Below, piece after piece: positions 3,036 to 51,869 of a stretch of DNA of 64,000 nt. Positions within the stretch are counted from its first letter, which is position 1. Each line of letters opens with the position of its first letter. The notes beneath the pieces were generated by a model, which ran no database searches, was not told the DNA's origin, and was given only the letters and a program-made list of their open reading frames with translations. Source of the DNA: a virus. The translations under genes were made by a program, and so were the position numbers. The stretch lies in the IMG/VR virus record IMGVR_UViG_3300006056_000038, positions 1-64,000 of that record; one strand, written 5' to 3'.

Positions 3036-3039
3036 ACCC

Positions 3040-4423: not shown

Positions 4424-4437
4424 GGACAATTTCTCCC

Positions 4438-10592: not shown

Positions 10593-10638
10593 AGGGTTGG
10601 TTTTATGGTTGTCCCCATAAATAGCAGGGCAATGATGG

Positions 10639-15456: not shown

Positions 15457-15479
15457 CATAAATAGCTCTCTATTTATGG
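15457..15479. promoter_or_regulatory. Palindromic motif CATAAATAG-ctct-CTATTTATGG in the divergent region
   Basis: Serves the start of 15452(-) (about 4 nt) and 15496(+) (16 nt). Confidence 0.5.
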
Positions 15480-23081: not shown

Positions 23082-25880
23082 TCATTGGTTGGAAGTTTGT
23101 TTATTGCATGTGATCAATGCCTGTCTTTTTTCCTGACCTCCACTACGCATGTAATGCGACTTCTTCACACCATAGTACTCTGTTGAAACAATGGTGAACC
23201 CTGCGTTCAACAGGCAATGAGAAAGTTCAACGACATACTTCTCGTTCATATCCAGAACCATCTTTCCGCTCGTCTTCAGATAGGCATGACAGTTTACAAG
23301 GACGGGGAGTAATTCCTTTGCGAACCATGTCTGGGTGTCCAAACCTTTTGGAGTTTCGCTATACGAATACAGTTCATCGTAATAGAAAGGAGGAGATGTG
23401 AAGATGAAATCCACCCTCCCCTTCAAACTCTCTTGGTACACCTTGGAGTCACCGAATGTCACCGTGCAATTCTTCAGGTCCTTTTCCTTGATGATGCGTT
23501 CATATCCATCCTTAAGATGGAGGTTTATGTCATTGCCGACGTAATGTGCTCCTCGTTCGCAGCAAGCGAGCATGCGGCTGCCCCAGCCAGCATATGGGTC
23601 ATACACCACATCGTCGTATTGCACATTGTTCTGATATACGCCCCTTGCTTGCTCGATAGGGAATACCCCCACGTTGTACACGGTTCTCACCGCAATACCG
23701 CGATACAACTGCATGATGGAGACATCGAACAGCTCCTTCTTCTTGTTCAGCCCCAGACGGTACTTCACCACTTCCCTTAAAACACCCTTGTCTTGAAATA
23801 TGTCAAATAACCCCTTCTCTCTCTTATGAGAACGATAATAGGAATCGGCGAACACGCCTTTCAACCACGATACTGTAGTGGGTCTCTTCGATAGATCGAT
23901 ACAATCCTTTATGTACTTCTCCGGAGGGTAGAACGTGGTCCAGAATTCCAGAAGAGTGTCAACTAGATCTTCATTCTTCAGCATCTCATCTCTGCCTCTT
24001 TCGCAATACTCCTTGCTGAATATTATGTCATGCTCTTTAAGGCGCAACAGCGGATGGTCTTGAAGATTGATTTCGTATCTATCCAAGAATGTGATCAAGT
24101 CATTCTCTGAATTGAATTTTTGTGGCGCATGCTGCTTCACGTCTTTCTCACGAATGCGGTAAAGGCGATAGCCGCTTTCTTTTGCTACTTCGTCTTTCTT
24201 GACGTCACGGACGAAATTCAATATCTGCTTGAAATGATATCCTCCCTTGCTGACATATCCGTGCCAGTAATCCCCATCCAATTCTATCAATATCTTCCTG
24301 TCTTCCAAGCACCAATCGAACATGAACTTACCAACAGATTTCTGCTTCCGTATTCCTTGAAGTTCGCAAGTGGCTTCACGGAATGCTCGTTCCAGTTTGT
24401 TCTCCTTATATGTCTGCTTGGTTTTGTTGTACAATATGGCGGTATCTGACATTTTCTTCGATGTCGTACTGTTGAATATGCCCTTAGCTCCATACTTCTC
24501 TTTGTACATCGTATGGTCCATACCATGGACTGCCAAATGTGTTTGGGTTATGGCTCTCAATTTCTCTCCACAAACACCACACTCTACCCAATTTTGAGGA
24601 TTGACCTGCATGTCGATTGCGTTCGCCTTTTTCTGTTCGATACGCTCAAGCTCTGTTTTGAATAGCAGGCTTTCTTCTTCATGAATTTTCACGTGTTCCT
24701 CTACTGTAAGGTTATGCACACTTACAATGTGTGTGGTATACCATCCGCTGGCATTTGAGAGATCATTGGTGGTCCAATCGCAGTACGCGCATTTCCTCTT
24801 TTCTTGTACAACATTATCTACTTCATTGAAATCGAAATGTTCGTAGTACCACGGCTTTCCTGTGGTCTTGAAAAACTCGCGCTTCTTTGTGTTGGTCTCA
24901 TGCTCCATATCGGGCATTATCCTCTCAAGGTGCCTCGTTATGATGCCGGATGCATTCAAGTAATCAGGAAAACGTTCTCCGGTCTGCCTACAAATCGCCA
25001 CATAATTCTTCCCTTCTTCGAAGAAGGATGGCATCCCCTTCTTGTCGAAACGGATGTTCTGCTTGGCTTTTTCTGACCTCAAACGTTTGTACTCCTCAAG
25101 GCGCTCATGTTTGTTGGGCCAATCCTCCAACGGAGGGAATGGAACGAACATGTTCCACTCCATAAGCACGCGATGAATGAGACTTGAGCTCATACCGACC
25201 GCTTCTTCCAGCGCGCGCATGGAAAGGCCGTCCTCCAAATATCCTTTCTTGATGACCGTGAACTGCGCTTCGGTGATCTCCGCGCGTGGCTGATACTGAT
25301 ATGTGCGCGCCTCCTTTGGCTGCGGTTGGATGAATTCGAAGTGGTCCACGAACCATGGTCGCCCTTGTTCGGTTTGGAACTTCTTCTTTTTGAAGTCGCT
25401 CTGGTCCGCCATGGGGACCCTCAGTTTTCTCAAATGTGCCGTAAGGGCCCCGGATGCGTTACGGAAGTCATCAAACTCCTTTCCTGTGGCCTTACATACG
25501 GCCACATACTCGACGCCCGGTTTGAAGAACGGTGCGGGCACGGTAATGAGAGGGTTACCGTGATTCCATTTCCTGTCGCGCTCTTCATCGGAACCATCGG
25601 CGCCAACATATAACCCAACCTCTTGAAGTGTTTTCGTACACCACATGAGGCTTCGCCCCATTTCGGTCGCCATCCGACTCAATGGTAATTTGTCTTTCAG
25701 ATGTAAACGGGCCAGATTCAGGATGTCCTCCGATGTGGCTTCTACTTTTTTGATGCTTCCTCCCATGCAACAAAGGTAGTACATCAATTCATATATTCCA
25801 AATTTGCCGAATGACTTTACTCCATCTAAAGGAATTATGACGATCTTTCTTGAAATATAACAAAAGAGAAAGGCGACCAT
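23082..25880 (-). CDS. Fusion protein: triplicated Cys-motif DNA-binding repeats + Vsr/DUF559-like endonuclease domain + C-terminal DNA (N6-adenine/N4-cytosine-type) methyltransferase
   Basis: Three repeats of C..TG..F.D..NASG..T.HL (VCKATGKEFDDFRNASGALTAHL, ICRQTGERFPDYLNASGIITRHL, CAYCDWTTNDLSNASGWYTTHI). RKILIELDGDYWHGY matches the Vsr-like PD-(D/E)xK core. The MTase segment has motif I VVYDPYAGWGSR and motif IV FIFTSPPFYYDEL. Confidence 0.65.
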   Translation of the reverse strand: MVAFLFCYISRKIVIIPLDGVKSFGKFGIYELMYYLCCMGGSIKKVEATSEDILNLARLHLKDKLPLSRMATEMGRSLMWCTKTLQEVGLYVGADGSDEERDRKWNHGNPLITVPAPFFKPGVEYVAVCKATGKEFDDFRNASGALTAHLRKLRVPMADQSDFKKKKFQTEQGRPWFVDHFEFIQPQPKEARTYQYQPRAEITEAQFTVIKKGYLEDGLSMRALEEAVGMSSSLIHRVLMEWNMFVPFPPLEDWPNKHERLEEYKRLRSEKAKQNIRFDKKGMPSFFEEGKNYVAICRQTGERFPDYLNASGIITRHLERIMPDMEHETNTKKREFFKTTGKPWYYEHFDFNEVDNVVQEKRKCAYCDWTTNDLSNASGWYTTHIVSVHNLTVEEHVKIHEEESLLFKTELERIEQKKANAIDMQVNPQNWVECGVCGEKLRAITQTHLAVHGMDHTMYKEKYGAKGIFNSTTSKKMSDTAILYNKTKQTYKENKLERAFREATCELQGIRKQKSVGKFMFDWCLEDRKILIELDGDYWHGYVSKGGYHFKQILNFVRDVKKDEVAKESGYRLYRIREKDVKQHAPQKFNSENDLITFLDRYEINLQDHPLLRLKEHDIIFSKEYCERGRDEMLKNEDLVDTLLEFWTTFYPPEKYIKDCIDLSKRPTTVSWLKGVFADSYYRSHKREKGLFDIFQDKGVLREVVKYRLGLNKKKELFDVSIMQLYRGIAVRTVYNVGVFPIEQARGVYQNNVQYDDVVYDPYAGWGSRMLACCERGAHYVGNDINLHLKDGYERIIKEKDLKNCTVTFGDSKVYQESLKGRVDFIFTSPPFYYDELYSYSETPKGLDTQTWFAKELLPVLVNCHAYLKTSGKMVLDMNEKYVVELSHCLLNAGFTIVSTEYYGVKKSHYMRSGGQEKRQALITCNKQTSNQ

Positions 25881-25924: not shown

Positions 25925-27565
25925 TTAGTAGGTGTTGATGTTGTCGATGTACACTACACCGTAGAAGCGGTTGTTGACCATCTTCTTAGCATACCTTGTC
26001 ATGATCCCCTTACGCGGAGTAAAGTCATTCGGATCATAGATCGTCTGCGTCAATTGCAGCGGGATGTATGGGGCGTAGATGTAACCAGCCTCCAAGAAGG
26101 TGTTACCCTTGTGACCCAACAGCACGATCTGCGCAGGCAGGTACGGATCCTTGTAGACCACGTAACGGCTACCCAACTGACCGATCTTCTCGATACCGAG
26201 GTTGTACTTCTCCGACTCAGGGGAAGCACTGCCATCGACGTGGAAGTATTCCAGATCATCGAAGATCGCACCGGCCTCAGCCGAGCACACGATCCAGTTC
26301 GCACCACCTCTCAAGGTTGCCTTGTGGATCTGGGCGCTGAGCTCGTTCACACGGGTGATCAGCGTTTGGTTCCAGTCCTTTTGGGTACCGAAGAAGTTCG
26401 CGTTGTTCTGGAGACCTTGGTAGTCCCAACGAGCACGGAAAGGTGCGCCGTTGATGAGGTCCGTCAGGATCTCGCGGTCGATCTCAGCAGCAACGTGCTC
26501 GGAGAGAAGAGCGGTCAGCTCAGCCTCGGCATCAATGCTGTGGTAGGCCTCAAGATCTTGGGCCAATTCAGGGGTCCAGTGAGCGCGGAGCTTACGGGTC
26601 ACGGTGTTCACGGTCACGCTGGAGAAGCGGATCGAGATCTCGGACATTTCACCCTTCGCTTCCAAGTCGTTGTAGACCTCGAATGCAGGAGTGACGGTCA
26701 GGGCGAACTGAGTACCGAAGTTGGTACCGTTGTTCAACATCGCGGAGTTGAAGTCCGAACCGTAAACGCTCGGTGGACGAAGGTCCAACACGATGTTCGA
26801 GGTGGAACCTTGGAACTGGTCGGTTCCCCATGCTTGCACGTTCGCGAACACAGGAACGCTTCCGCCAGCGGCAACGAGCAGGATGTTGCTCGATCCAGCG
26901 CTGTAGTAGATAGCGGTGGTCGAGGAGTACCTCAAGGAAGCAGAAGACTGCTGCTTGGAGGTGTCGAAGCCCGTGAGGGTGAAAGCACCCGGATCGTACA
27001 AACCATTGCTGAAGCTGTCAGCGGAGAAGGTCTTGGAAACGCCAAGAGCCGTTTCGCCCGTACCGAAGGACAGATCGAAACCACGGTTGTTGTAGAAACG
27101 CTCGTAGGCAGAGGTGTCCGCGAACACAGGGCCACCTTGACCGTTCGCGGTATTCTTGGGGTTCACCTTGTTCATGCGTGCGATTTCCTGAGCACGCGTG
27201 ATCGACGTGTCGAAGGTGTTGTCACTACCGTTGAACGATACACGCGCGTCCATGTAGAACAACAGACCGGTAGGGAGCGCCAAAGGCTGCACCGAAACCA
27301 GTTCATTGGCCAACAGACGCGAGAATACGCGACGAACGATAGGGAACGCCACCGTATCGAAACGTCCAGCGGACGCGTCGAGGGTTACCTCGTTCAGCAT
27401 CGAAGCAGCCTGCGACTCCAGCAACTGCGCGATGTTGGAACGCTTGGGTCCCTTCAGGCCTTTGAGCAGGCCAGACTCCTCCCAGTTCGCAACGATAGCG
27501 TTGCGCTGTTCTGCGAGGTTCTTCAAAGTGGTAAGGCCGACCTTACCGGTTCTGAGTAATTCCAT
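25925..27565 (-). CDS. gp23: Major capsid protein, T4 gp23-like
   Basis: 546 aa. RRVFSRLLANELVSVQPLALPTGLLFYMD aligns with T4 RRAIPNLIAFDICGVQPMNSPTGQVFALR. ELAQDLEAYHSIDAEAELTALLSEHVAAEIDREILTDLI aligns with ELAQDLRAVHGMDADAELSGILATEIMLEINREVVDWI. AGYIYAPYIPLQLT aligns with AGIYYAPYVALTPL. Confidence 0.85.
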   Translation of the reverse strand: MELLRTGKVGLTTLKNLAEQRNAIVANWEESGLLKGLKGPKRSNIAQLLESQAASMLNEVTLDASAGRFDTVAFPIVRRVFSRLLANELVSVQPLALPTGLLFYMDARVSFNGSDNTFDTSITRAQEIARMNKVNPKNTANGQGGPVFADTSAYERFYNNRGFDLSFGTGETALGVSKTFSADSFSNGLYDPGAFTLTGFDTSKQQSSASLRYSSTTAIYYSAGSSNILLVAAGGSVPVFANVQAWGTDQFQGSTSNIVLDLRPPSVYGSDFNSAMLNNGTNFGTQFALTVTPAFEVYNDLEAKGEMSEISIRFSSVTVNTVTRKLRAHWTPELAQDLEAYHSIDAEAELTALLSEHVAAEIDREILTDLINGAPFRARWDYQGLQNNANFFGTQKDWNQTLITRVNELSAQIHKATLRGGANWIVCSAEAGAIFDDLEYFHVDGSASPESEKYNLGIEKIGQLGSRYVVYKDPYLPAQIVLLGHKGNTFLEAGYIYAPYIPLQLTQTIYDPNDFTPRKGIMTRYAKKMVNNRFYGVVYIDNINTY

Positions 27566-27593: not shown

Positions 27594-28967
27594 TCAATCT
27601 TGGTCAGGAGCATCGAGACCCGCGAGTACACGGTTCCGTTTTGCTTCAGCACTTTCGTAAATAGGCTGCTTTTTTGGTTGTGCCACTGGAATGGCGGAGG
27701 ATTTGATCACACCCTTGTCTTTTGGCATGCTCTTTTCGCTGATGATCTCTTTGTAGATGCGCTCAGCTTCCTCTGCACTCGTTGCGGCTTCGAAGCGTTC
27801 GGAGATCCGAACCTTCTCCTTTTCCGTCAAGCCCCCATTGGATACCACGCGGTATGCAAGCGCCAACTTCTTGTTGAACGTCTGCACCTCGTTGTAGTGC
27901 TCCCGGAGTTCGATGAAGGCGCTTTTGAATTCGCCTATCTGACCCTTCAAACTTTTGTTTTCCTTCTTTAGCTCGGCGATGATCGCCTCATGGTGAGCTT
28001 CTTCTTTCTTGGTATTCTCGTTCACTGCACCCGTGCGGGTACGGTTGTCAACGGCCACCTTGGGCGCGGTGTGCGGTCCTGCGGTGCGGTTGACGGTATG
28101 CGATTGACCCATGGCCTTTACTTCGTCCACGAGCGCTTCGTCCTCTTCCATTTCGAGTTCGATGAGATCATCGTCCTCGTCCAGCTCGATCATTTCCTCC
28201 ATGGCAGGGGCCATTTCAGGGGCGGGCGCTGGAGCTTCTGCGGCAGGAGCAACAGCTCCGGCCTCGTCGTCCACGATGTCCACTTCGTCACCATCGCTGG
28301 TGGGAGCGGCGCCGGTCTGTTGGGCGATCATCTTCTTGATGACGTCCGCCAACTGGGCGGTGAGATCTTCTTGGGGAGCAGCTTCTGGAGCCACCTCAGG
28401 TGCAACCTCTGGGGCTGGAGCTGGGGCGGCTTCTGGAGCGGCGGGTGCGGGTTGTTCCATGTTGGGTTGTGTTTGTTCTTCTTCCGCAGTGATCTGGATC
28501 TCATCCTCATCGGAGGAGAGCTCGATCTGCTCGTCATCGCCCACCGCATCAACAGCGACGGGAGTAGGTGCGACTGACGTAGGCGCCACCGGAGCGGCAG
28601 GAGTGGCATCGACCGGGGTCTGGGTAACGGCGTCGACGGGGGTCTCGGGGACCTCACCGGCTTCGGGTTCCTTGAATTCGTTCTTGATGGAACCATCGTC
28701 GTCGATCGTCACCTTCTGGGTGTCGGTCTCCACCTTGATGGTCTCCGAAACGATCTCAACGGGGACCTTCGTCTCTTCGACGGGCTCCTCGTTGTTCACT
28801 TCATCGATGGCATCTTCGACCAATCGTTGGATCCTCTCTTGGTTCTCCTTGAGAAGATTGTCCTGAGCCAGCTTGACGATGGAGTCGATGTCCACCTTTG
28901 CTTGTTGAAGAATATTCTTTTCCTTGCTCATATCGCTGATCTTCGATTTTGAATAAATAATGCACAA
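27594..28967 (-). CDS. Scaffolding/prohead core protein (gp22-like by position), acidic coiled-coil with a Pro/Ala/Glu low-complexity region
   Basis: Sits between the protease and MCP genes as in T4 (21-22-23). Very acidic, with the AAPEAAPAPAPEVAPEVAPEAAP repeat region and coiled-coil ends. Antisense ORFs here (e.g. 28111-28866+) are repeat artefacts. Confidence 0.55.
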   Translation of the reverse strand: MCIIYSKSKISDMSKEKNILQQAKVDIDSIVKLAQDNLLKENQERIQRLVEDAIDEVNNEEPVEETKVPVEIVSETIKVETDTQKVTIDDDGSIKNEFKEPEAGEVPETPVDAVTQTPVDATPAAPVAPTSVAPTPVAVDAVGDDEQIELSSDEDEIQITAEEEQTQPNMEQPAPAAPEAAPAPAPEVAPEVAPEAAPQEDLTAQLADVIKKMIAQQTGAAPTSDGDEVDIVDDEAGAVAPAAEAPAPAPEMAPAMEEMIELDEDDDLIELEMEEDEALVDEVKAMGQSHTVNRTAGPHTAPKVAVDNRTRTGAVNENTKKEEAHHEAIIAELKKENKSLKGQIGEFKSAFIELREHYNEVQTFNKKLALAYRVVSNGGLTEKEKVRISERFEAATSAEEAERIYKEIISEKSMPKDKGVIKSSAIPVAQPKKQPIYESAEAKRNRVLAGLDAPDQD

Positions 28968-28987: not shown

Positions 28988-30811
28988 TTAGAGCGATTTC
29001 CAGAATTTGTTGTTCTGCATTTCCTTCAAGTCGGAATATTTCCCGCTCTTCGACACCTGTTCGATGCCTCCGATCTTGAGCATTTTCATGCTGCGCGATT
29101 CACGGAAAAGGAATGCTCCGGGGGTCGATGGGGACGATACGAAGTCGAATGCGATGAGTTCGAAGTCCTCTTGGACAACGTCATGGCCGTTCTGCGATTT
29201 CACAGATCCGACGCCACGACTGGAGATGCCCAGTTTGAATCCGGTCTTGAGAAGACCTTTCAATGTGTCGCCCGCTTTTGTTTCGGCGATCTGCACCTTG
29301 CCGTACAGGGTGTCGCCGTCCCACCATAGATCGAGTACCTTGTGGGAGACGTTGGTAAGAGAAATAACTGCGGAGTTTCCGGTCCAGTGCGCCTTGCCAT
29401 TGCGCATGGTGTAGAAATTTCCGTTCTTGACACGTACGCAATACACACGATCATTGTATGCTACCTTTTCGATCTTCATCATTCTCTTGTCGAGATAGAT
29501 GAATTCGGTGGATGAGATGTTGAGGTTGTATTGCAGAACAGAGTTCTCTGCCTTGATGGTCCTCGGGATCATGACCTCCGTTCTTACGAGGCTGAGCGTG
29601 CCATCGCCGTTGTCAACCTCATTGACAACTTCTTTCCATTCATTGATGACCCTATCCTTAGGTTGCCATTCACTGATGTTTCCACAACCGCCTATCTTCA
29701 CAAGTACTTCTTGCAGATCATATATGAGCTGCTTGGACGTGGAGAAGACAGATTGCTTCTCCCACTGCCCATTTGGTCCCTGCTTTACATTGCGCCCGTC
29801 ACCTTTCATGAAGGCGTCGAACATGATCTTCAAAAGACGTGGAGATGCCTTCTTGAGCTCTTCAGGAATGTATTTGTTGTGCGAATTGCCAAGTGGCTTG
29901 AGGTATTCATGCAGTCTGAGGTCGGTGAACCTGAATGACGCTTTGCCATTCTTTTCATACACCGACTTTCGGAATGGGAGCCTTTCTTGCAGCGCACGGA
30001 TCTCTTCCTTGGGTCCGTTTTTCACTTGATGGATGGAAACCGAGTAATTACGCGCAGCTTCATAGTCGTATCCCTCGGATCCGGTAACATGACCCTCAGC
30101 AAGCCACCATCCCATGAATTCAAACCAATCCTCCGCTTTGACTTTGATGTCCTGCTCTTGTTCCTTTATGAAGTAGTCATGGGACTTGCGGTTTGACATA
30201 TCCATGCCGGGAATGGTGAAGAATTCCATTTCCTCCCCGATCCAATCGCCCTTTTTCGGGAGTTTCCACTTATTGTCACGATACTCATAGAGTTCGGCTG
30301 CCGTTTTGTAGAACCGTTTGCCGTTCCTATCTTCAATGAGAAACCTATGGTTTGGTGTGACCATTTGATCGATGTTCTTTCCTGTGAAATGGAACATCTC
30401 TCCCTTGTAGTGCTGGTCAATGCGTTTTTCTATCTTCTGGTATTCGATCTCATTGGTCTCTACGTTCAGTGTGGCGACCACCTCATTATCGGTCACATCC
30501 CTCCATGATTTCCATCCTTGAGATGTGAGTATCATACTCATAAAGTCCTGACAATCAGGGTGGTCTAGCTCCCCTCCGGCCGTATTATCCCTCACAGAAG
30601 CAAGGTATTTCTCCACTTCTCTCTCAAGGATTGCCCTTGGATAAACTCTCCCATTTTTGTTCAGTGCATTCGCCTTTTGCATAATGCCCGACATGATGAT
30701 GGGCTGGTTGGTTTTCTCAGCTTCTATGATCAATTCCCGACTGGTACCGAATTCATAGAATTCACTGATGACCATTCTTTCATCCAACGGGTTCAATGGG
30801 GTAATCTCCAT
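28988..30811 (-). CDS. Prohead protease (T4 gp21-like extein, 91+128 aa) interrupted by a 388-aa Hint/LAGLIDADG intein
   Basis: Extein PIIMSGIMQKANALNKNGRVYPRAILEREVEKYLASVRDNTAGGELDHPD ... SAVISLTNVSHKV...LGISSRGVGS...; spliced size 219 aa (T4 gp21 is 212 aa), positioned before scaffold and MCP. Intein evidence: block A SMILTSQGW, block B TPNH, two LAGLIDADG-like motifs (FMGWWLAEGHV; LKIMFDAFMKGDG), terminal ...HWTGN|S. Confidence 0.6.
   Translation of the reverse strand: MEITPLNPLDERMVISEFYEFGTSRELIIEAEKTNQPIIMSGIMQKANALNKNGRVYPRAILEREVEKYLASVRDNTAGGELDHPDCQDFMSMILTSQGWKSWRDVTDNEVVATLNVETNEIEYQKIEKRIDQHYKGEMFHFTGKNIDQMVTPNHRFLIEDRNGKRFYKTAAELYEYRDNKWKLPKKGDWIGEEMEFFTIPGMDMSNRKSHDYFIKEQEQDIKVKAEDWFEFMGWWLAEGHVTGSEGYDYEAARNYSVSIHQVKNGPKEEIRALQERLPFRKSVYEKNGKASFRFTDLRLHEYLKPLGNSHNKYIPEELKKASPRLLKIMFDAFMKGDGRNVKQGPNGQWEKQSVFSTSKQLIYDLQEVLVKIGGCGNISEWQPKDRVINEWKEVVNEVDNGDGTLSLVRTEVMIPRTIKAENSVLQYNLNISSTEFIYLDKRMMKIEKVAYNDRVYCVRVKNGNFYTMRNGKAHWTGNSAVISLTNVSHKVLDLWWDGDTLYGKVQIAETKAGDTLKGLLKTGFKLGISSRGVGSVKSQNGHDVVQEDFELIAFDFVSSPSTPGAFLFRESRSMKMLKIGGIEQVSKSGKYSDLKEMQNNKFWKSL
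29375..30538 (-). mobile_element. Intein (Hint + double-motif LAGLIDADG homing endonuclease) inside the prohead protease gene
   Basis: Boundaries inferred from alignment with the free-standing paralogue and from the intein blocks: Ser at +1 of the N-junction (DCQDFM|SMILT), C-terminal Asn followed by Ser (HWTGN|SAVIS). In-frame, with no stops. Confidence 0.6.
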
Positions 30812-30830
30812 ATTATCTGAAGTGTTTGCC

Positions 30831-30873
30831 CTATAAATAGAGAAGGGCTCTGCATTTCCGCAGAGCCCTTCTC
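30831..30873. promoter_or_regulatory. CTATTTATAGG motif (30831-30840) plus a perfect 14-bp-stem hairpin (30840-30873) between the HEG and protease genes
   Basis: GAGAAGGGCTCTGC-atttcc-GCAGAGCCCTTCTC; an A7 run follows on plus and a T7 run precedes on minus. Confidence 0.5.
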
Positions 30874-30893
30874 AAAAAAACATCATCACACAC

Positions 30894-32081
30894 TCATTCC
30901 ATGCCGCCTATCCAATGTACCTTGTAATTGTACATCACGCAATAATTCCCCTGTTCTGTCTTGAAGTCATACATCATTCCCTTATGACGCACCTTATCCA
31001 CAGACATCATTCTATTATCCAGATAGATGTACTCCGTAGATGCTACATTGAGATTGAATTGCAGATGAGAATTCTCTGCCTTGATCTCTCTTGTGACTTT
31101 ATTCCTTGTAACGACTTCTACCATTTCACTGCCATTATCCACTTCTTCAACAACATCTTTCCATTCATTGATAACCCTGTCTTTTGGTTGCCATTCGCTA
31201 ATATTTCCTGAACCGCCCATCTTCATTAGTATTTCTTGCATGTCATATACGAGCTGACGTGACGTGGAGAATACTGATTGCTTTTTGTATTGACCCTTGT
31301 CTCCTTGCGTTACATCACGCCCGTCGCCTCTCATGAAAGCATCGAACATGAGTTTCAGCAAATGAATAGGGACTTGTTTCAATTCCTTAGGAACGTATTT
31401 TACATGCGAATGTCCAAGCGGTAACAGATAGCCGTGAAGTCTCGCATCGGTGATAACAAATTGTATTGATCTTCCATCAGAAGTATGCTCACGATATGTT
31501 TCAAATGGCATGGCCATCATGGTATCGCGTATTTCTTGTTTATTATCTCCATCCTTCACCTGTGCAATATGTACTCTATATGCCTTCGTTTTTGATCCTG
31601 CGGTCCCAACTGCGTAACCTTCCGACAAATACCATCCCATGAACCGGAACCATACTTCCGCAGGAATTTCCACATCCTTTGAATAAGCGTCTCTCAAATC
31701 TTCAGGGGCTCGATTTGATATCGTAGCCCCATCCAACTTGAACGTCTCCATCTCCTCTCCGACCCATTTGCATTTCTTCAGCACCTTCCACTTGTTGCTC
31801 CTATACTTCAGCAACTCACCTGACGTGCTATAGAACTGCTTCCCCTGTCGGTTCTCCAGCAAGAACCGATGGTCCGGCGTGGTCAACTGTTCCAAGTTCT
31901 TTCCGTGGAACCGAACGGCATGTCCATCATAATTCTCCTTCTTCACTTCCGTGACGGGATGGTACACAAGAAACCCTTCCCCGTTCAGCGTGGCCAGCTC
32001 ATCGCCAACGTTCACATCCGCGACGTTCCTCCATCCCGACTTCGTCAATACCAACGCTTTTTCTGCTATCATAACAAGCAA
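30894..32081 (-). mobile_element. Free-standing Hint/LAGLIDADG homing-endonuclease gene, a degenerate paralogue of the protease intein
   Basis: 395 aa, collinear with the intein (about half of the residues identical by eye; e.g. QGKQFYSTSGELLKYRSNKWKVLKK.. versus NGKRFYKTAAELYEYRDNKWKLPKK..). It has no exteins, begins M..EK-ALVLT (Ala where an intein would have Ser/Cys) and ends HWIGGME* (Gly where the intein has its terminal Asn). Confidence 0.6.
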
Positions 32082-32120
32082 AAATAAGGAATTACAATAA
32101 GTTCTGCAAATAGAAATTCC

Positions 32121-32651
32121 TCACCGATTGCTCCTTCTCACCTCGAAACCCTTCCGATCTGTCATCAATTCGCTGCTCACAAATGCCTCCGCGACCTTCA
32201 ACGCCGATCCGTACAATGGGCTCTTCACCATCAATGGCACCTTCTCTCGATCCTTGACGTTCGAGGTATGCAGGTACAATTCGAGGTTCACATAGTTGCG
32301 CTTCTCGTTGTAGGCGAAGTTCTCGGGGATGTTGACGATGAAAATGTTGTTCTTACGGTCCGGAAAGGCCGGGTTCGCATCGATGTGCTTTCCCTCCACC
32401 GCTCCATAGCATTCCCCTATCGCATTCTCCAATCGCTTGCGTGCATTGGTGATGTCCCCGATGGGACGCGTCCAGAAGCCCATGGAGATGTAGATCGTGC
32501 TGGGGGACTCCCGGTTTTCCATCGCCCCGATCTGCACGGAAACGTTCTCGTTCGACAATTCGAACGGCTTTACTTTTATCTCTCTTGCGGTTCTGATCAT
32601 TTTTGTTATATTTCTCCCGGAGAATATAAACAAAAACGACTGCCGAACCAA
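32121..32651 (-). CDS. Hypothetical protein
   Basis: 176-aa ORF with good coding character, no motif. Confidence 0.45.
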   Translation of the reverse strand: MVRQSFLFIFSGRNITKMIRTAREIKVKPFELSNENVSVQIGAMENRESPSTIYISMGFWTRPIGDITNARKRLENAIGECYGAVEGKHIDANPAFPDRKNNIFIVNIPENFAYNEKRNYVNLELYLHTSNVKDREKVPLMVKSPLYGSALKVAEAFVSSELMTDRKGFEVRRSNR

Positions 32652-41308: not shown

Positions 41309-41357
41309 TTGGATTCTATTTCTTCTTTTTCCTATCTTTGCGTCCTGACGGACCCGA

Positions 41358-43561: not shown

Positions 43562-44445
43562 GCATCAAGATAGCCTTCTTGGACTTCTGGGGCGACTTCG
43601 ATCCTCACAACAATTTCTTCAAAGACCTGTTGGCATCCATATCGGATGTTGAGGTAACGGATCCGCATGCCTGCGACGTGCTTTTCTTCTCGTGTTTCGG
43701 TCAACAAAATCTGGCCTATCGTAACAAGAAGCGCATCTACTTTACGGGCGAGAACCTTCGTCCGAGCTACGACGTTGATCGGGTGGACCACCGTGGATTC
43801 CGCTCGGACAAATGCGATTATTCCCTCTCCTTCGACTTCAGCGAAGACCCACGCAACATCCGTCTTCCGTTGTGGATGCTCCAGATCGACTGGTTCAACA
43901 AGAAGGGTTACGTCAATCCGAAATTCGTGATGCCGTACGATCAGCTCCACGACAATCTTCTGATGCGGAGGGAGCGTACGGAATTCTGCTCCTTCGTCTA
44001 CAACAATGACGCTCCGCATCGCAAGGAGATCGTACAGGAGCTGTCCCGCTACAAGAAAGTGGATTGCTTCGGGAAGCCGCACGGCAATTGGTTCTACGGC
44101 GAAGACAACAAGCTTGCCACTTTGTCGAGGTACAAGTTCAACATCTGTTTCGAGAACTCCATCCATCCGGGCTATTACACCGAGAAGCCGATCCATGCGA
44201 AGTACGCCGGGTGCGTTCCGGTCTATTGGTCCGACGCCGACATGGGCATCGACTTCAATGCTGCGGCATACTTGAACCTGAACGACTTTGCTGGCATTAA
44301 GGAGCTATGCGAACGGATTGTCGAGTTGGACCAAGACGACCAGCAATACGAAGCGCTGCGTTCCCGACCGATGTTCACGCTGCAACAGGACCCCAAGCAT
44401 TTGCTTGATGCAATTGTCGATCAACTAAAGCCCATTCTGACATGA
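43558..44445 (+). CDS. Glycosyltransferase family 10-like (alpha-1,3-fucosyltransferase motif)
   Basis: [34 protein letters not shown] matches the GT10 signature (F/Y)xLAFENS...(D/G)YxTEK...AL..G.VPV. Start taken at MSIKIAF, overlapping the previous stop. Confidence 0.6.
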
Positions 44446-45533
44446 AGACGGCATTGATCACAGGTTCAGCGGGGCTCATTGGCTCCCAAGCGTGTCGTTT
44501 CTTCCACGATAGGGGCTATCGCATCATCGGTATCGACAACAACATGCGTGCCTACTTCTTCGGAGAGGAAGCATCCACCATGGCCTCGCGCAACGGATTG
44601 GAGGCCTCCCTGTCGAACTACCAACACTACGTCACCGACATCCGCGACCACGCTTCCTTGGAACGATTGTTCCGGGCGTATTCCTCGGACATCGACATCA
44701 TCATCCATACCGCCGCGCAGCCATCGCACGACTGGGCCGCCAAGGAACCATTGACGGACTTCAGCGTCAACGCCACAGGCACCATGAACCTGTTGGAGTT
44801 GACCCGACTGCACTGCCCCAAGGCCACCTTCATCTTCACCTCCACCAACAAGGTGTACGGCGATCGACCGAACTATCTGGAGCTAGTAGAAATGGAGAAA
44901 CGCTGGGAGCTTGACCATGAGCTCCACGAGTTGTCATCGCATCTGGAGGGCGCCAGCATCAATGGCATCGATGAGCGCATGTCCATTGACCGCATCACCC
45001 ACTCGGTGTTCGGGGCCTCCAAGGTGGCCGCTGACATCATGTGCCAAGAGTACGGGAGGTACTTCGGGATGAACGTTGGCGTGTTCCGGGGCGGATGCCT
45101 CACGGGCCCCAACCATGCCGGAACGGAGCTTCACGGCTTCCTGTCGTATTTGGTGAAATGCATCGTCCACGACAAGCCGTACACGATATTCGGGTACAAG
45201 GGCAAGCAGGTTCGCGATAACATCCACAGCGCCGATCTGATCGCCATGTTTTGGGAGTTCCACAAGAACCCGAGGCCGGGCGCCGTATACAATGCTGGAG
45301 GCGGAAGGGAGAATTCCACGTCCATTCTGGAGGCCATCGATTCGATCAATGAAATCGCCGGAACACAGTGGAGCAACTACACGGTCTCGAAGGACAACCG
45401 TATCGGAGATCACATCTGGTACATCAGCGACCTGACGCGCTTCAAGCTGGACTACCCGAAGTGGAGAATGAACATCAACCTGAAGGAGACCATCAAGCAA
45501 ATGGTGGAAGTTGAAAAAATAAGTACGAGATGA
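44442..45533 (+). CDS. NAD-dependent nucleotide-sugar epimerase/dehydratase (extended SDR); the catalytic YxxxK reads FGASK
   Basis: GSAGLIGS Rossmann motif; [10 protein letters not shown]; ...[13 protein letters not shown] aligns with PYGASKAAAD of CDP-paratose-epimerase / UDP-Glc-4-epimerase-type enzymes, but with Phe at the Tyr position. Confidence 0.65.
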
Positions 45534-46174
45534 TATATCCAAGACAAACCGACCTTCCATACCCGCAGCCTTGGGAGTTTGTTTATGAGAACTTCTTCAA
45601 AGACAAAAAAGATTTGTTTTATGTCGATGTTGGCGCGAATGACGGACTTTTGGTCTCAAATACAGCTTTTTTCGAACTTGACATGAACTGGATAGGCATA
45701 TGTATAGAGCCTCATCCTCTTGCATTTTCAAAGCTGGAGACCAATAGAAAGTGTGTAAAATACAACTGTTGCATTAGCGATGAATCAACCACCTTGGAGT
45801 ATAACAAGGTTTCTGGATATGCCGAAATGCTGAGCGGCATAAGATCCGTTCAGGACGATCAACACATGAGAAGGATAATGAGCGAAATACAAAAGCATGG
45901 TGGCACTCTTGAAGTGATCAATGTTGAGTCAAAGAGATTGGATGCCATCTTGAATGAAAACAACATACAACATGTCGACTACCTGTCGATAGACACAGAA
46001 GGCGCAGAAATGAAGGTGCTTTCAAGTTTGGACCTGACTGCTTTTGATATAAAAGTTATAAGTGCAGAGAATTCAGATACGAATGCAACTGTACGGGATT
46101 TCCTGAACTCAAAGGGGTATGACTTTATCACCAAAGTTTGTTCAGATGAAATCTTTGTAAAGCGAAATCCATGA
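45530..46174 (+). CDS. FkbM-family SAM-dependent methyltransferase
   Basis: [19 protein letters not shown]...IEPHP...[12 protein letters not shown] matches the FkbM domain pattern. First gene of the AT-rich island; its start overlaps the stop of the upstream gene (ATGA). Confidence 0.55.
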
Positions 46175-47118
46175 AAATAGCATTCCACGATAACTCGATC
46201 AGTTTGAGAGGCACGACCGTTGCTGTTTTTGACTATGCCTATTGGACTAGGAAAATACTAGGCAATGAGTCCATAATATTGTACAACAAGAACCATTCAG
46301 CCAATTCACCTGATGTGTACAACAAGTTTGCAAAGGAATTCGACATATTTTCCTATGATAACGCGTCTGAAATAGACAGCATCCTTTCAAAGAATGGCTG
46401 TGATGTCTTTTTCATGGAAAAAGCAGGCAAACAAGATGGTGTGATATCGAATGTTTGTGAAAATTGGGTTCACGCCATCGGCATATGCAACAAAGGCAAT
46501 ATACATGGAGACAAGTTCGCCTTAGGTTCAAGGTGGCTTTCAAAAATTGTCAACTTTGACATACCGTATGTGCCATATATGGTCTCTCTTCCGGATCACG
46601 ACGAGAACATGAGAGCGGAATTGAACATACCGGGTGACGCATTTGTATTTGGTAGGAATGGTGGTATTGAGACGTTTGATATTCCTTGGGTCAAACAGAT
46701 GATAATTGAATCCCTAAGATTAAGGAATGATGTCTGGTATGTTTTTCAATTCACCGAACAGTTCGTTCAACATGAGCGGGTCATCCATCTGAATGGCAGT
46801 TCGGACCTGAACGCAAAAACCAAGTTTATCAATACGTGTGACGCCATGTTGCATGCCCGATCGGTTGGTGAATCCTTCGGCCTTTCTTGTGCAGAGTTCT
46901 CAATAAGAAACAAGCCAGTTGTAACTTGGCATGGCTCGCCAGAAAGGAGTCACATCGACATTCTTGGAGATACCGGGATATACTATAATGGCCAGAACGA
47001 TTTGCTTGATATTCTCTTAAGCATGAAGAAAGAAGATGTGGCCAACAAGGATTGGAACTGCTATAAGGACTACTCACCTGAAATAGTGATTGAAAAATTC
47101 AAACAAGTTTACCTATGA
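46171..47118 (+). CDS. Glycosyltransferase, GT-B fold (C-terminal GT4-like motif)
   Basis: VGESFGLSCAEFSIRNKPVVTW, i.e. the E-x-FG...E...G-PVV motif. Confidence 0.45.
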   Translation: MKIAFHDNSISLRGTTVAVFDYAYWTRKILGNESIILYNKNHSANSPDVYNKFAKEFDIFSYDNASEIDSILSKNGCDVFFMEKAGKQDGVISNVCENWVHAIGICNKGNIHGDKFALGSRWLSKIVNFDIPYVPYMVSLPDHDENMRAELNIPGDAFVFGRNGGIETFDIPWVKQMIIESLRLRNDVWYVFQFTEQFVQHERVIHLNGSSDLNAKTKFINTCDAMLHARSVGESFGLSCAEFSIRNKPVVTWHGSPERSHIDILGDTGIYYNGQNDLLDILLSMKKEDVANKDWNCYKDYSPEIVIEKFKQVYL

Positions 47119-47753
47119 CGATAGAACATTATTTGCTTACAATGAGAAACAATGGATATGTTCCAAATTCTATTTTGGACATTGGGGCCAATGTTGGGCA
47201 TCTTTCCATGTTCTGCAAAGGTTTGTGGCCAACGGCCAAAATCCTGATGATGGAAGGCAATGAAAATTGTGAACCAGATCTGCTGCAAACAGGGCTGGAC
47301 TACAAAATATGTCTATTGGGAGATTCCAATAAGGAAGTTGAATTCTTTATGAACAAGAAGAACCCAAAATGCACTGGAGGGTCTTACTACAAGGAGGTGA
47401 CACGACACTATTCAGACAGCGTTGTTATCACAAAACAACTTTCAAAACTCGATGATCTGGTCGATGACGGTTATGACATCATAAAAATAGACACTCAAGG
47501 ATCTGAATTGGACATAATGAAGGGCGGCCCAAGAACCATATCAAATTCTCAATTTGTCATACTTGAGGTCGCAACAAAACAGTACAATCAAGGGTCGCCA
47601 ATGTATGACGAGGTGGTATCATACATGACAAGTATCGGGTTTGACAATAGAGAAGAGATAGAGCGACACTATTGGATGGATGACGACTACGAAAACTTTA
47701 AGAAGGGAGACATTTTTCAAGTGGACATTGTCTTCAGCAGAAACAAAGCATGA
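47115..47753 (+). CDS. FkbM-family SAM-dependent methyltransferase (second copy)
   Basis: ILDIGANVGHLS ... IIKIDTQGSELDIMKG. Confidence 0.55.
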   Translation: MTIEHYLLTMRNNGYVPNSILDIGANVGHLSMFCKGLWPTAKILMMEGNENCEPDLLQTGLDYKICLLGDSNKEVEFFMNKKNPKCTGGSYYKEVTRHYSDSVVITKQLSKLDDLVDDGYDIIKIDTQGSELDIMKGGPRTISNSQFVILEVATKQYNQGSPMYDEVVSYMTSIGFDNREEIERHYWMDDDYENFKKGDIFQVDIVFSRNKA

Positions 47754-48505
47754 AAGTCGCAGTTTGTTTATACGGCTATCCCAGACATGCTCAAATCGGA
47801 GCCAGATCTCTTGGGCACTTTTTTGATGGGATCGAACATGACTTCTTCATACATGCTTGGTACGATCCGAACGAATCAATTGCTTCACTTGATTCTACCC
47901 AAAATGAAATAAGCGGCCTATTCAAGCCAGTGGAATTTGTACTCCAAAAGCAATTGGAGTTCAAGAAGACATTTGATTTCCCGCATGACCTTAGCTGCCT
48001 AAAACCGGAACTGGTCAACCAGAACATTGGTGTTTCCACGTTTTTGTCCATGCTATATTCCATGAAGCAAGTCGGTGAGCTTCTTCAAAGATCACCCAAT
48101 GACTATGAGCTTGTTGTACTGACGAGAACTGATGTTTTCTCTCATAATCAACTTAAAAATTACACCTTCAATTCGTATGATGAAATATACTCATCTTTTT
48201 GTCATGGCGGCATTTGGGATCTTAACAACGGAGGCGAGGCAATAGACACTAAAATGATATCATCAAATAGAAAGAATATGGAGTCACTGATGAACATTTA
48301 TGAGTTCGTCGAAGACTACATAGCTTTTGATAAGATCAAAGTGTGCCATCATAGAATTCTTGCGCATCATCTGAAAAAAATGAATCAAAAGTTTCATATG
48401 ATGTTTCCCGAAAGTGGAAATTGGTTTTACTTAAGAAGCAATGGTCTGTTACATGGAGAAAAATATGATTCTGACATATCGAATTATGCGAACGTCTTCA
48501 AATGA
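47750..48505 (+). CDS. Hypothetical protein, paralogue A (similar to 49233-50027)
   Basis: MKVAVCLYGYPRHAQ... versus MRIALCVSGQMRTFD...: shared N-terminus and similar length. Possibly a glycosyltransferase-like fold; not assignable. Confidence 0.45.
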   Translation: MKVAVCLYGYPRHAQIGARSLGHFFDGIEHDFFIHAWYDPNESIASLDSTQNEISGLFKPVEFVLQKQLEFKKTFDFPHDLSCLKPELVNQNIGVSTFLSMLYSMKQVGELLQRSPNDYELVVLTRTDVFSHNQLKNYTFNSYDEIYSSFCHGGIWDLNNGGEAIDTKMISSNRKNMESLMNIYEFVEDYIAFDKIKVCHHRILAHHLKKMNQKFHMMFPESGNWFYLRSNGLLHGEKYDSDISNYANVFK

Positions 48506-49236
48506 ACATTTTATTTCCAATAGCAGGGGAGGGCAAAAGGTTTCAAAACCAATCCCACATCCCAAAGCCATTGATTGAGATCAATGGAAAGCCAATGTTG
48601 TGGTGGGCGATAAAGACGCTCAACTTGGAAGGCAACTATATTTTCGTTATCCTCAACTATCATGATGACTCTTTCAACGAAAAGATGTCACTTATCCTGA
48701 GTGAAGTCAAAAATGCCAAAATCATAAAGGTAGATCGACCAACAAAAGGTTCGGCCTTCACTTGTCTCTTAGCTGAAGAATACATAGACAATGATGACTC
48801 ATTACTGGTGACGAATTGTGATCAATATCTGAATTGGAAATCAAAAGAGTTTCTTGAGTTCGTCAGCCAAGAGCATTTGGATGCATGCGTTTCCATATAT
48901 GACCATGGAGACATAACAGTAGGAGAAAAAAGCCCTTACTGCTTCGTGGATATCGATGCAGATGGCAAAATAACGAAGTTCTGCGAGAAGCTCGCCATCT
49001 CGAAGCATTCGATGAATGGCATACATTACTGGCGGAAAGGAAAGGATTTTGTTGCTGGTTGTAAGAAAATGATCGAAGACAAGGTGACGGTGAATGGAGA
49101 ATTCTACTTCTCCAGCAGCTTCAATTATTTGATTGAGGACAAGAAGAAAATACTACCTTTCTTTATGAGAAGACATGAGTACATATCACTCGGCACACCG
49201 GAAGACGTTCAAAATAACATTCAAAAGATAAGATGA
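48502..49236 (+). CDS. Sugar-phosphate nucleotidyl(cytidylyl)transferase, IspD/TarI-like
   Basis: MNILFPIAGEGKRFQNQSHIPKPLIEINGKPMLWWAIKTL matches the IspD/TarI N-terminal signature (P-A-G-x-G-x-R ... PKQ(F/Y)L.I.GKP(I/M)L.H). Confidence 0.6.
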   Translation: MNILFPIAGEGKRFQNQSHIPKPLIEINGKPMLWWAIKTLNLEGNYIFVILNYHDDSFNEKMSLILSEVKNAKIIKVDRPTKGSAFTCLLAEEYIDNDDSLLVTNCDQYLNWKSKEFLEFVSQEHLDACVSIYDHGDITVGEKSPYCFVDIDADGKITKFCEKLAISKHSMNGIHYWRKGKDFVAGCKKMIEDKVTVNGEFYFSSSFNYLIEDKKKILPFFMRRHEYISLGTPEDVQNNIQKIR

Positions 49237-50027
49237 GAATAGCTTTATGTGTTTCCGGGCAAATGAGAACTTTTGACAATCCGGGGATAATCGATTTGAA
49301 CAGAAAACTGGTGAAACAATTTTCATGTGATGTTTTTATATCCACATGGAGCAATAGAGGCGTATCATTGTGGAGTCAAGTGGCGTTGCCAAATTTGAAG
49401 AATTTACATGACGTTTCGTTGATTGACCCAATCACAGAGAACATGATACTCAATTCATTTGACAATGTTAAATCTATTGAGATTGAAAATTATGACGATT
49501 TTACCAACCAAATTGAAAGTGTTCGCGTCAAAAACTTGCTGAATGGTGACACAAAATCAATGTTCAATAGCAAGGTGACAAGTTATCCTGAAATGTACAA
49601 AGTATACAAGGCAAATCGTTTGAAAAAAAACCATGAGGATGTTGGACAATTCAAGTATGATGTTGTAATAAGAACTCGACCGGATGTGGCGCACATCAAC
49701 ACCGACATCGATGTTCACTTTCATGATTTGAATGACTCCATATATCACATGAATACCGACTTGACTTTCTTCCAATTGCCAAGGATATACTCTATTTTCT
49801 TTTTTGGGAACTCAAAAACCATGGATGTCATCTCTGATTCCTACAGCGTTTTTCTTGAATTGGCTGACATGGATTCATGCAATCACCTGACTCAATTTGA
49901 TTCGCCCAGATTGTTCTATAATCAATGCACAAAAAATGGCATAGTCGTAAAGACAATACAGAAAACCGTTGGAGATGTGTTCAGAATGGAAGAAGATTTG
50001 GATGAGTATGTTTCAAGATTCAAATGA
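49233..50027 (+). CDS. Hypothetical protein, paralogue B (similar to 47750-48505)
   Basis: See paralogue A. Confidence 0.45.
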   Translation: MRIALCVSGQMRTFDNPGIIDLNRKLVKQFSCDVFISTWSNRGVSLWSQVALPNLKNLHDVSLIDPITENMILNSFDNVKSIEIENYDDFTNQIESVRVKNLLNGDTKSMFNSKVTSYPEMYKVYKANRLKKNHEDVGQFKYDVVIRTRPDVAHINTDIDVHFHDLNDSIYHMNTDLTFFQLPRIYSIFFFGNSKTMDVISDSYSVFLELADMDSCNHLTQFDSPRLFYNQCTKNGIVVKTIQKTVGDVFRMEEDLDEYVSRFK

Positions 50028-50037
50028 CTCAGTCACC

Positions 50038-50736
50038 ATGAGAAAGTTGTTCATGTCCTTTGCGGATTATCGCTATCAATCAAAGCAGGCGGATCTATCA
50101 AGGTCGGCGCAGGCCTATTTTCATACTGTTTATTCTTTTGGCCCGAATGACATTGATCCTGATTTCTTTGAAGAGAACAAGTCAATTCTTATCCATCCAA
50201 AAGGGGCTGGGTACTGGGTGTGGAAGCCTTATTTCTTGCTCAAATGCTTTGAAAGCATGAGTGATGGAGACGTTCTATTCTATGCAGATGCTGGCAATAC
50301 CATAGTTAATGACTTCCGTCCACTTTTCGATCTATTGGAAAGTACGCCCACAAAAACGCTGCTGTTCTTTAATCGCGGCGAAAATGACAAGGCATTTACC
50401 AATAGGTGGTATACCAAATACGACTGCTTTCATTTAATGGATTGTTTAGGCGAAGAGTTCTTTGATGGTGATCATGCGGATGCCGCCTATCAAGTTTATG
50501 AAAAGAACGAGTTCAATAAGAACTTCTTGGAGGAATACTTGAAGTACTGCCTGAATTGGCAAATAATATCAGATTCAAAGAGCATACATGGACAAGAATT
50601 CCAAGACTATCGTGATCATAGGCATGACCAGTCAGTTTTATCCAATCTTGCAATAAAGTACAAAATTCACTTACACCCTCAGCCTGATCAATACGGCATT
50701 AAGGATTACCTGAACGTTTTTGACCACCATAGATAA
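50038..50736 (+). CDS. Hypothetical protein (possible nucleotide-sugar-dependent transferase)
   Basis: Start MRKLFMSF, 11 nt after the upstream stop. Conserved-looking block ILIHPKGAGYWVWKPYFLLKCF...VLFYADAGN. Confidence 0.4.
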   Translation: MRKLFMSFADYRYQSKQADLSRSAQAYFHTVYSFGPNDIDPDFFEENKSILIHPKGAGYWVWKPYFLLKCFESMSDGDVLFYADAGNTIVNDFRPLFDLLESTPTKTLLFFNRGENDKAFTNRWYTKYDCFHLMDCLGEEFFDGDHADAAYQVYEKNEFNKNFLEEYLKYCLNWQIISDSKSIHGQEFQDYRDHRHDQSVLSNLAIKYKIHLHPQPDQYGIKDYLNVFDHHR

Positions 50737-50749
50737 AATACACTGAAGC

Positions 50750-51859: not shown

Positions 51860-51869
51860 CAAAAACAAA

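Follow-up and report, generated by a model that had tools for sequence, protein, structure and literature searches.

We analyzed a window of 64,000 nucleotides (nt) of viral DNA, positions 1 to 64,000 of IMG/VR virus record IMGVR_UViG_3300006056_000038, in which one open reading frame (ORF) of 607 amino acids (aa) carries the two halves of a phage prohead protease on either side of an intein. Very probably, an S77-family protease is interrupted here by a mobile intein that runs from Cys87 to Asn479, phage head maturation would depend on protein splicing, the intein would spread by homing, and the gene next to it would be an escaped copy. We set out below the evidence for the protease and its intein, for recent movement of the element, and for the relationship of the neighboring gene to it. 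Coordinates of all features are collected in Table 1.

An intein within a predicted prohead protease

A first-pass annotation of the window had placed the 607-aa ORF upstream of scaffold and capsid genes and read it as a gp21-like protease containing an intein made up of a Hint domain and a LAGLIDADG nuclease. The ORF lies at exactly 28988-30811 on the minus strand, the gene order is as described, and every motif quoted at that time is present in the protein (GGELDHPD, TPNH, FMGWWLAEGH, IMFDAFMKGDGR, HWTGN/S and LGISSRGVGS, a slash marking a splice junction here and below). The ORF matches the PHROG family 'head maturation protease' (E 3.2e-44), and Pfam detects Peptidase_S77 (PF03420; E 8.6e-26, 91.1 bits vs a cutoff of 27) in two separated stretches. 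The T4 gp21 structure 5JBL also aligns in two parts, to residues 38-86 and 492-569, flanking the insertion as had been proposed for the two extein halves. The putative catalytic residues His84 and Ser530 both align with Ala in the 5JBL chain; we take it that Ala replaces the catalytic His and Ser there, in a construct made inactive for crystallization, and the spacing from HP to WW in the spliced protein equals that of T4 gp21. In an alignment of 119 homologous clusters, with identity down to ~39%, on which all conservation counts given here are based, His84 is kept in 117 clusters, and S480, S530 and S531 are invariant. Together with the empty sibling alleles and the intein fold matches described below, these alignments on both sides of the insertion bear out the annotation: judged from its sequence, the ORF is a T4 gp21-type prohead protease interrupted by a Hint plus LAGLIDADG intein.

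The boundaries of the intein are not those first proposed. An intein of 388 aa between exteins of 91 and 128 aa (219 aa together) had been drawn, and this is corrected to 393 aa between an N-extein of 86 aa and a C-extein of 128 aa (214 aa together). We place the start at Cys87 because this residue is all but fixed (118 of the 119 clusters) and residues 88-92 vary in both sequence and length, because intein-less alleles in sibling contigs L001 and L002 define a gap of exactly 1179 nt, or 393 codons, and because a free-standing paralog of the intein opens with Met at the very position of Cys87. The first three of these observations rule out Ser92 as the first intein residue. When 29375-30553 is removed from the window gene, 645 nt remain, the length of the protease gene in L001 and L002, and nt 278-645 are 100% identical. 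Intein-less protease alleles are also found in L006, L016 and L017. Both junctions, DHP[DE]/C and W[TS]GN/S, are invariant across the clusters. A start at Cys87 puts the insertion two residues after His84. The C-terminal boundary before Ser480 and the closeness to the catalytic His stand as annotated, whereas the N-terminal junction ...DFM/S has to give way to DHPD/C, which lies five residues farther upstream.

Conservation extends over the splicing and nuclease motifs alike. Thr152 and His155 of block B (TxxH) are present in 119/119 clusters, as are Asn479 and the +1 residue Ser480; Phe157 (B:12) is found in 107/119 and Cys458 (block F:4) in 117/119. Block G retains Trp476 in 116/119 and the penultimate Gly478 in 118/119, and position 477 (G:5) is Thr in 100 clusters and Ser in 12 (T or S in 112/119). 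In the nuclease, position 239 of motif 1 is E or D in 117 clusters and Asp338 of motif 2 is kept in 116. The homologs came from a search of a 5.8-billion-protein collection, of which we examined the best 120 clusters: 119 of these 120 are S77 proteases of 468-999 aa with an intein of the window type, on contigs of up to 349 kilobases (kb). An architecture shared this widely among the best database clusters puts the motif pattern far beyond chance.

We modeled the full precursor with AlphaFold2 from a 59-sequence alignment, obtaining a mean predicted local distance difference test (pLDDT) score of 83.7, mostly >90 in the intein part. Foldseek against the PDB returned TliVMA (E 1.5e-15), PhoVMA, PI-PfuI, PI-SceI and PI-TkoII as the best matches (range 1.5e-15 to 1e-9), followed by the LAGLIDADG enzymes I-Tsp061I and I-DmoI and the AceL NrdHF intein. 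Matches to inteins of the PI-SceI, PI-PfuI and VMA type agree with the annotated content of a Hint domain plus a two-motif LAGLIDADG nuclease. By sequence, the sole intein of known structure found was AceL NrdHF (6ZGQ; E 7.2e-6 to 7.6e-5), which matched the N-terminal Hint half only.

Allele states and a gene-conversion signature

All four possible occupancy states of the intein and the free-standing copy were found inside one phage clade, with the window carrying both elements (Table 1). Compared with L001 in 60-nt bins, the window is 100% identical from ~33000 to 31621, save for a few bins of 93-97% around 32520-32221, and identical again from ~29300 onward for several kilobases. Between these lies a diverged patch that spans the stand-alone nuclease region, the intergenic region and the N-extein, with the intein present in the window only and not in L001. 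On the left, the patch is bounded (~31620) exactly by LAGLIDADG motif 1 of the stand-alone gene; on the right, it reaches ~20 nt beyond the intein site, and the C-extein is 100% identical to that of L001 from 20 nt after the junction. Within the stand-alone gene, codons 1-115 show 0 differences between the window and L001, and synonymous divergence (dS) in the nuclease domain is 1.08. The three carriers of the stand-alone gene represent three equally diverged patch alleles, with dS >1 in the nuclease domain.

The patch has the signature of gene conversion initiated by a double-strand break, with asymmetric co-conversion and one end by the intein site. Comparison of these genomes points to recent mobility of the intein, and the retention of its nuclease residues is what one would expect if homing continues. 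Near-isogenic genomes in four states, combined with a sharply bounded conversion tract, provide a snapshot of intein homing of a kind that is rare.

Proposed splicing and homing, and other interpretations

We propose that after translation the Hint domain would excise itself, joining ...GGELDHPD to SAVISL... and yielding a 214-aa protease with the junction peptide ...GGELDHPD-SAVISLTNVSHK... Only in this spliced product would His84 and Ser530 share one continuous fold. Because the intein sits beside the catalytic His, the active protease, and so head maturation, should depend on splicing. During co-infection, the embedded LAGLIDADG endonuclease would cut intein-less protease alleles, and recombinational repair would copy the intein together with its flanks, leaving a conversion patch such as that between the window genome and its sibling. 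The neighboring 392-aa gene would be a copy of the intein that moved out of the protease gene and persists, stripped of its splicing residues, as a stand-alone homing endonuclease.

Several observations weigh against this proposal. Pfam supports the annotated nuclease with a LAGLIDADG_3 match of 22.5 bits, exactly the cutoff, but its match to the annotated Hint domain, Intein_splicing (PF14890), scores 29.0 bits, under the gathering cutoff of 35.8. The penultimate His (block G:6), a frequent though not obligatory intein feature, is absent, with Gly478 in its place. Block F:4 holds Cys rather than Asp, which makes the reaction path uncertain. With regard to homing, two genomes do not tell whether the conversion brought a gain or a loss of the intein; the empty site of L001 reads HPSDA, not HPD/SA, and may be no cleavable target. 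On the other side, PF14890 is present in the precomputed annotations of most homologs, and a penultimate Gly is compatible with splicing because the mycobacteriophage Bethlehem gp51 RDF intein has Gly at this position and yet splices (PMC5050341). Weighing these points, we regard the window intein as a genuine and probably active, mobile intein in a phage prohead protease.

How the intein splices is a separate matter. The strict conservation of Cys1 argues that this residue is used, and splicing is most probably of class 1, started by Cys1. A possible, if doubtful, alternative is a class 3 or hybrid route, in which Cys458 would attack the N-terminal junction and a branched thioester would pass to Ser480, leaving Cys1 dispensable or auxiliary. 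Alignment to the KlbA intein (2JMZ) places Cys458 at KlbA's block F Asp (IYD vs VYC), and the class 3 WCT triplet (B:12, F:4, G:5) reads F-C-T in the window intein. The conservation of Cys458, Thr or Ser at G:5 and a penultimate Gly rather than His would all suit a class 3 route, as would the identity of the one structurally known intein that sequence searches detected: AceL NrdHF is a proven class 3 intein with an atypical M-C-T triplet, hence likewise non-Trp at B:12, no penultimate His and Ser at +1 (PMC7891396). That similarity, however, is confined to the N-terminal Hint half, and B:12 is Phe in the window intein, not Trp. Class 3 inteins need no nucleophile at residue 1, although its presence is not forbidden (PMC5222942); even so, typical members begin with Ala, and Cys in all clusters but one would not be expected of a dispensable residue. 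With its invariant Cys1 beside class-3-like Cys at F:4, Thr at G:5 and Gly at G:6, the intein is a good test case for relations among splicing classes.

It is also conceivable, but quite unlikely, that the intein, beyond being a selfish element, has been recruited for regulation, for instance through a Cys1-Cys458 redox switch that would delay protease activation during head assembly. The position beside the catalytic His, the invariance of the Cys1/Cys F:4 pair and the wide spread of the allele would fit such a role, and redox-controlled inteins exist, an example being the mycobacterial DnaB intein (PMC6195587). Nevertheless, genomes that are nearly identical differ in whether they have the intein, the clade is rich in intein-less alleles, and the endonuclease residues are conserved, as in a selfish element that is still homing.

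A free-standing paralog of the intein

The gene directly upstream of the protease gene, absent from the first-pass annotation, is the less expected component of the locus: over its full length, its 392-aa product aligns with the whole intein in BLASTP (51% identity, E 5e-135). Its splicing residues have been lost, with Met for Cys1, Asp for Cys F:4, Ile for Thr G:5 and no terminal Asn; TxxH and both LAGLIDADG acidic residues are retained. The same gene is found in L001 and L002 (87% identity) and in L006 (83%), beside intein-less protease genes, and its length, start and end are identical in the window, L001 and L006. The ratio of nonsynonymous to synonymous divergence (dN/dS) is 0.09-0.15 for the whole gene, and for the Hint-N, nuclease and Hint-C parts taken one by one it is 0.03-0.12, values that place the paralog under purifying selection. 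In a neighbor-joining tree the three 392-aa copies were monophyletic (100/100 bootstraps) and grouped with the gp21 inteins of the phage lineage to which they belong, and with no others (96/100 bootstraps), which indicates an origin from intein to free-standing gene. No extein remnants were seen around the stand-alone gene. The gene is placed between the stop codon of a 176-aa ORF and the hairpin-plus-CTATTTAT motif found ahead of the protease gene in all relatives.

The 392-aa ORF shares its frame with this 176-aa ORF (32121-32651); between the two lie one stop codon and 16 further codons, 13 up to a TTG at 32081 and 3 more up to the ATG at 32072. Such an arrangement could mean that the 392-aa ORF is no independent gene but an intein remnant of the upstream ORF, or else a dead duplicate. 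We consider this very improbable. The start ATG, the length and the ...HWIGGME end are kept in three lineages with low dN/dS in every domain, and the gene is preceded by a promoter-like motif of its own; moreover, the upstream ORF ends in ...EVRRSNR and a stop codon also in relatives that lack the 392-aa gene. This unchanged end rules out an intein inside the 176-aa ORF.

Other stand-alone members of the family are also splice-dead (P0197, P0211, P0228, P0235 and P0257), with a degenerate TxxH, no F:4 Cys and no terminal Asn, and with their LAGLIDADG residues intact. Those for which genomic context was available, on unrelated T4-like contigs, directly adjoin intein-less S77 protease genes, and stand-alone copies beside such genes are found in at least four T4-like phage lineages. 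In a neighbor-joining tree without support values the stand-alone copies fall into more than one clade, as if they had arisen several times independently.

In yeast, the intein-derived LAGLIDADG endonucleases WHO/HO lie beside the essential gene FBA1, cut sensitive alleles and replace part of them with a resistant version (PMC7282813; bioRxiv 10.64898/2026.08.13.744650). We tentatively suggest that the 392-aa gene may be a phage counterpart: an escaped, splice-dead intein that would home by cutting sensitive protease alleles and would carry the resistant part along with it; such escapes would have occurred repeatedly. Resistance would then come from junction mutations (HPSD) or from occupancy by the intein. 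Consistent with a unit of this kind are its persistent adjacency to the protease gene, the junction altered to SD in its carriers, and the covariation of the stand-alone nuclease domain and the 5' part of the protease gene as one diverged patch. To our knowledge, the transition from intein to free-standing homing endonuclease is known only from yeast HO/WHO; the phage material appears to show an intein making it.

Distribution of the element

Queried with the intein alone, the protein collection gave 609 clusters at 50% identity with E <= 1e-30, the best of which mostly have the size and intein position of the S77 proteases; further clusters hold far larger proteins. Of 50,697 phage records, 234 match the window protein and only 3 cover the intein-bearing protein, namely a 484-kb uncultured phage and two records of Desulfovibrio/Nitratidesulfovibrio phage 7757, all unannotated. 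A megablast of the locus against these 50,697 records gave no match, and a scan of IMG/VR with the spliced protease returned distant loci only. Full-text searches of one library found no paper on an intein in a gp21/S77 prohead or head maturation protease. The annotation had called the host protein unusual, which is right for isolates and the literature but not for metagenomes, where the allele is common and JGI has labeled it automatically (some entries as 'intein/homing endonuclease' or 'Prohead core protein serine protease/Intein splicing domain'). It is thus a new host protein and insertion site for the literature rather than a new kind of element, and is common in uncultured phages. The capsid-maturation protease thereby joins the list of intein host proteins, and with it phage head maturation would hinge on protein splicing.

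We give almost no credence to a non-functional protease, whether through decay of the insertion into a Hint-like or BIL-like domain that does not splice or through an artefact of assembly or frameshift, as the sub-cutoff Pfam intein score and the metagenomic source of the assembly might suggest, since the same architecture recurs in >115 independent clusters (JGI, ENA, NCBI and Logan) and in an isolated phage, the splicing residues are invariant, the frame is intact, and the empty allele matches to the nucleotide.

Some S77 proteases contain a second intein four residues upstream of the first (GE/CVPAGT...WTHN/CDHPD/C...; P0011, P0012, P0017, P0018, P0021, P0024, P0052 and P0077, the last with the upstream intein alone). 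Some single-intein proteins read GECDHPDC, as though the upstream site had formerly been occupied. Because the window intein lies two residues past the catalytic His and other phages have a further intein four residues off, this short stretch is an intein hot spot.

Other features of the window

All siblings have, ahead of the protease gene, a hairpin equivalent to the one that separates this gene from the free-standing gene in the window, followed in each case by the motif (T/C)TCTATTTAT. This motif occurs 11 times in the window vs 2.5 expected, and 0 of 100 shuffles reached 11. Its sites include 30833-30842, 10617-10626, 15468-15477 and 41314-41323, several of them just upstream of gene starts, and we consider it a candidate late promoter. 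Start codons in the window have no obvious Shine-Dalgarno sequences, and ARAGORN found no tRNA genes in window positions 1-64000.

Directly downstream of the capsid gene is a 932-aa ORF (23082-25880, minus strand; guanine-plus-cytosine (GC) content 0.46) with matches to ROS/MucR, DUF559 (Vsr-like nuclease) and DNA-methylase. Its counterparts vary in size (611-894 aa) and in domains in every sibling contig, and it is probably another mobile nuclease/methylase gene. A 613-aa ORF beside the tail sheath gene (7713-10121), at 5765-7606 on the minus strand (GC 0.45), matches DUF7487 and DUF559 and is possibly another selfish nuclease. On the plus strand, 12 co-oriented genes (45530-54563) that come after an NAD-dependent epimerase gene (44442-45533, GC 0.56) have GC ~0.40 vs ~0.55 elsewhere. 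These include two FkbM methyltransferases, a nucleotidyl transferase, another methyltransferase, an APH-like kinase and a transaldolase, so that 44442-54563 looks like a horizontally acquired cluster for sugar or glycan modification.

Table 1. Features of the protease-intein locus, its free-standing paralog and related loci. Positions are those of the window unless a contig is named; a slash marks a splice junction.
Feature	Position	Strand	Basis or remark
Precursor ORF, 607 aa: S77 prohead protease plus intein	28988..30811	(-)	ORF list, Pfam, PHROG
N-extein, residues 1-86, C-terminal GGELDHPD	30554..30811	(-)	aligns to 5JBL residues 57-106
Putative catalytic His84, in N-extein	30560-30562	(-)	alignment to 5JBL
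Intein, Cys87-Asn479, 393 aa, 1179 nt	29375..30553	(-)	empty alleles L001/L002, invariant junctions
Hint N-terminal half, residues ~87-205	30197..30553	(-)	conservation, 6ZGQ match, beta-rich, pLDDT >90
Cys1 (Cys87)	30551-30553	(-)	conserved 118/119
Block B TPNH, residues 152-155	30347-30358	(-)	T152, H155 in 119/119
LAGLIDADG homing-endonuclease domain, residues ~206-425	29537..30196	(-)	Pfam LAGLIDADG_3, Foldseek
LAGLIDADG motif 1 FMGWWLAEGH, residues 232-241, Glu239	30089-30118	(-)	conservation
LAGLIDADG motif 2 IMFDAFMKGDGR, residues 329-340, Asp338	29792-29827	(-)	conservation
Hint C-terminal half, residues ~426-479	29375..29536	(-)	conservation, KlbA alignment
Cys458, block F:4	29438-29440	(-)	alignment to KlbA intein 2JMZ
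Block G HWTGN, then Ser480 (HWTGN/S, residues 475-480)	29375-29389 (HWTGN)	(-)	conservation
+1 residue Ser480	29372-29374	(-)	invariant in homologs
C-extein, residues 480-607 plus stop	28988..29374	(-)	aligns to 5JBL residues 119-200
Putative catalytic Ser530, in C-extein	29222-29224	(-)	alignment to 5JBL
Free-standing intein paralog, 392 aa, MIAEKAL...HWIGGME and stop	30894-32072	(-)	BLASTP vs intein
Paralog LAGLIDADG motif GWYLSEG	31617-31637	(-)	
Paralog LAGLIDADG motif MRGDGR	31317-31334	(-)	
Diverged patch vs L001, 55-90% identity in 60-nt bins, plus intein	29355..31620	(-)	sliding identity comparison
15-bp hairpin, terminator-like, between free-standing gene and protease gene	30840..30873	(-)	terminator scan
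CTCTATTTAT motif, late-promoter-like, 22 nt upstream of protease ATG	30833..30842	(-)	conserved in all sibling loci
TTCTATTTG motif, putatively promoter-like, upstream of free-standing gene; resembles protease-gene motif	32107..32115	(-)	sequence reading
Scaffold-like gene, 457 aa, acidic, Ala/Pro-rich, downstream of protease	27594-28967	(-)	ORF list
Gp23-family major capsid gene, downstream of protease	25925-27565	(-)	Pfam E 3.1e-72
State: neither element	L016, L017		junction DHPEN (L016), DHPDS (L017)
State: intein only	L003-L005, L007-L009		junction occupied
State: free-standing copy only	L001, L002, L006		junction DHPSD
State: both elements	window		junction occupied (DHPD/S)
Intein at same site, isolated Desulfovibrio phage 7757	L028 (OR395405.1) 2962-4710		NHPS/C...TGN/S
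Intein at same site, 484-kb uncultured phage	L029 (LR756508.1) 2989-4716		DHPD/C...TGN/S
Splice-dead stand-alone copy upstream of intein-less S77 gene	L032 3729-4850 (also L033)		
Splice-dead stand-alone copy upstream of intein-less S77 gene	L034 4001-5104		
Splice-dead stand-alone copy downstream of intein-less S77 gene	L030 681-1832		

Comparison with known systems

The host gene resembles that of T4 gp21 (Peptidase S77; PDB 5JBL) both in its extein halves, which align around the catalytic His and Ser positions, and in the gene order protease-scaffold-gp23. T4 gp21 itself, however, has no intein, and its sequence similarity to the window protease is modest. In architecture the intein is like PI-SceI (VDE), PI-PfuI and the Tli and Pho VMA inteins, which combine a bipartite Hint domain with an inserted two-motif LAGLIDADG nuclease, share Cys1, TxxH, a C-terminal Asn and a +1 nucleophile, and home with co-conversion of their flanks. 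Unlike these, its host is a phage capsid-maturation protease; identity is only 8-14%, and His and Asp stand where the window intein has the penultimate Gly and the F:4 Cys.

With the AceL NrdHF split intein the window intein shares a ...DQxV(S/T)PNHR... block B, Cys at F:4, Thr at G:5, Ser at +1, a residue other than Trp at B:12 and the lack of a penultimate His. AceL, in contrast, is split, has no nuclease and begins with Ala1, whereas the window intein is contiguous, bears a LAGLIDADG nuclease and has an invariant Cys1. The Bethlehem gp51 RDF intein is likewise a phage intein with a penultimate Gly, but it belongs to another host protein and another intein family.

Two systems offer parallels to the free-standing gene. 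The seg and mob genes of T-even phages encode free-standing endonucleases that take part in intronless, collaborative and trans homing (PMC2988022). Like the 392-aa gene, they are stand-alone nuclease genes between conserved phage genes and beside a gene with a self-splicing element, and localized gene conversion and marker exclusion are expected in both cases. Their products, however, are GIY-YIG or HNH enzymes unrelated to inteins, whereas the stand-alone gene of the window is a paralog of the intein in the adjacent gene. Closer in origin are yeast WHO and HO, which are also intein-derived LAGLIDADG proteins without exteins or splicing, encoded by genes of their own beside an essential gene, with high allelic diversity that extends from the nuclease gene into the adjacent part of the essential one. 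The phage copies differ in lying mostly upstream of their presumed target and in coming from another intein family. All 392 residues of the window protein align to the intein, leaving no extra domain and no C-terminal zinc finger; without the zinc finger of the yeast proteins, the phage gene is therefore an analogue of WHO and not a member of its family.

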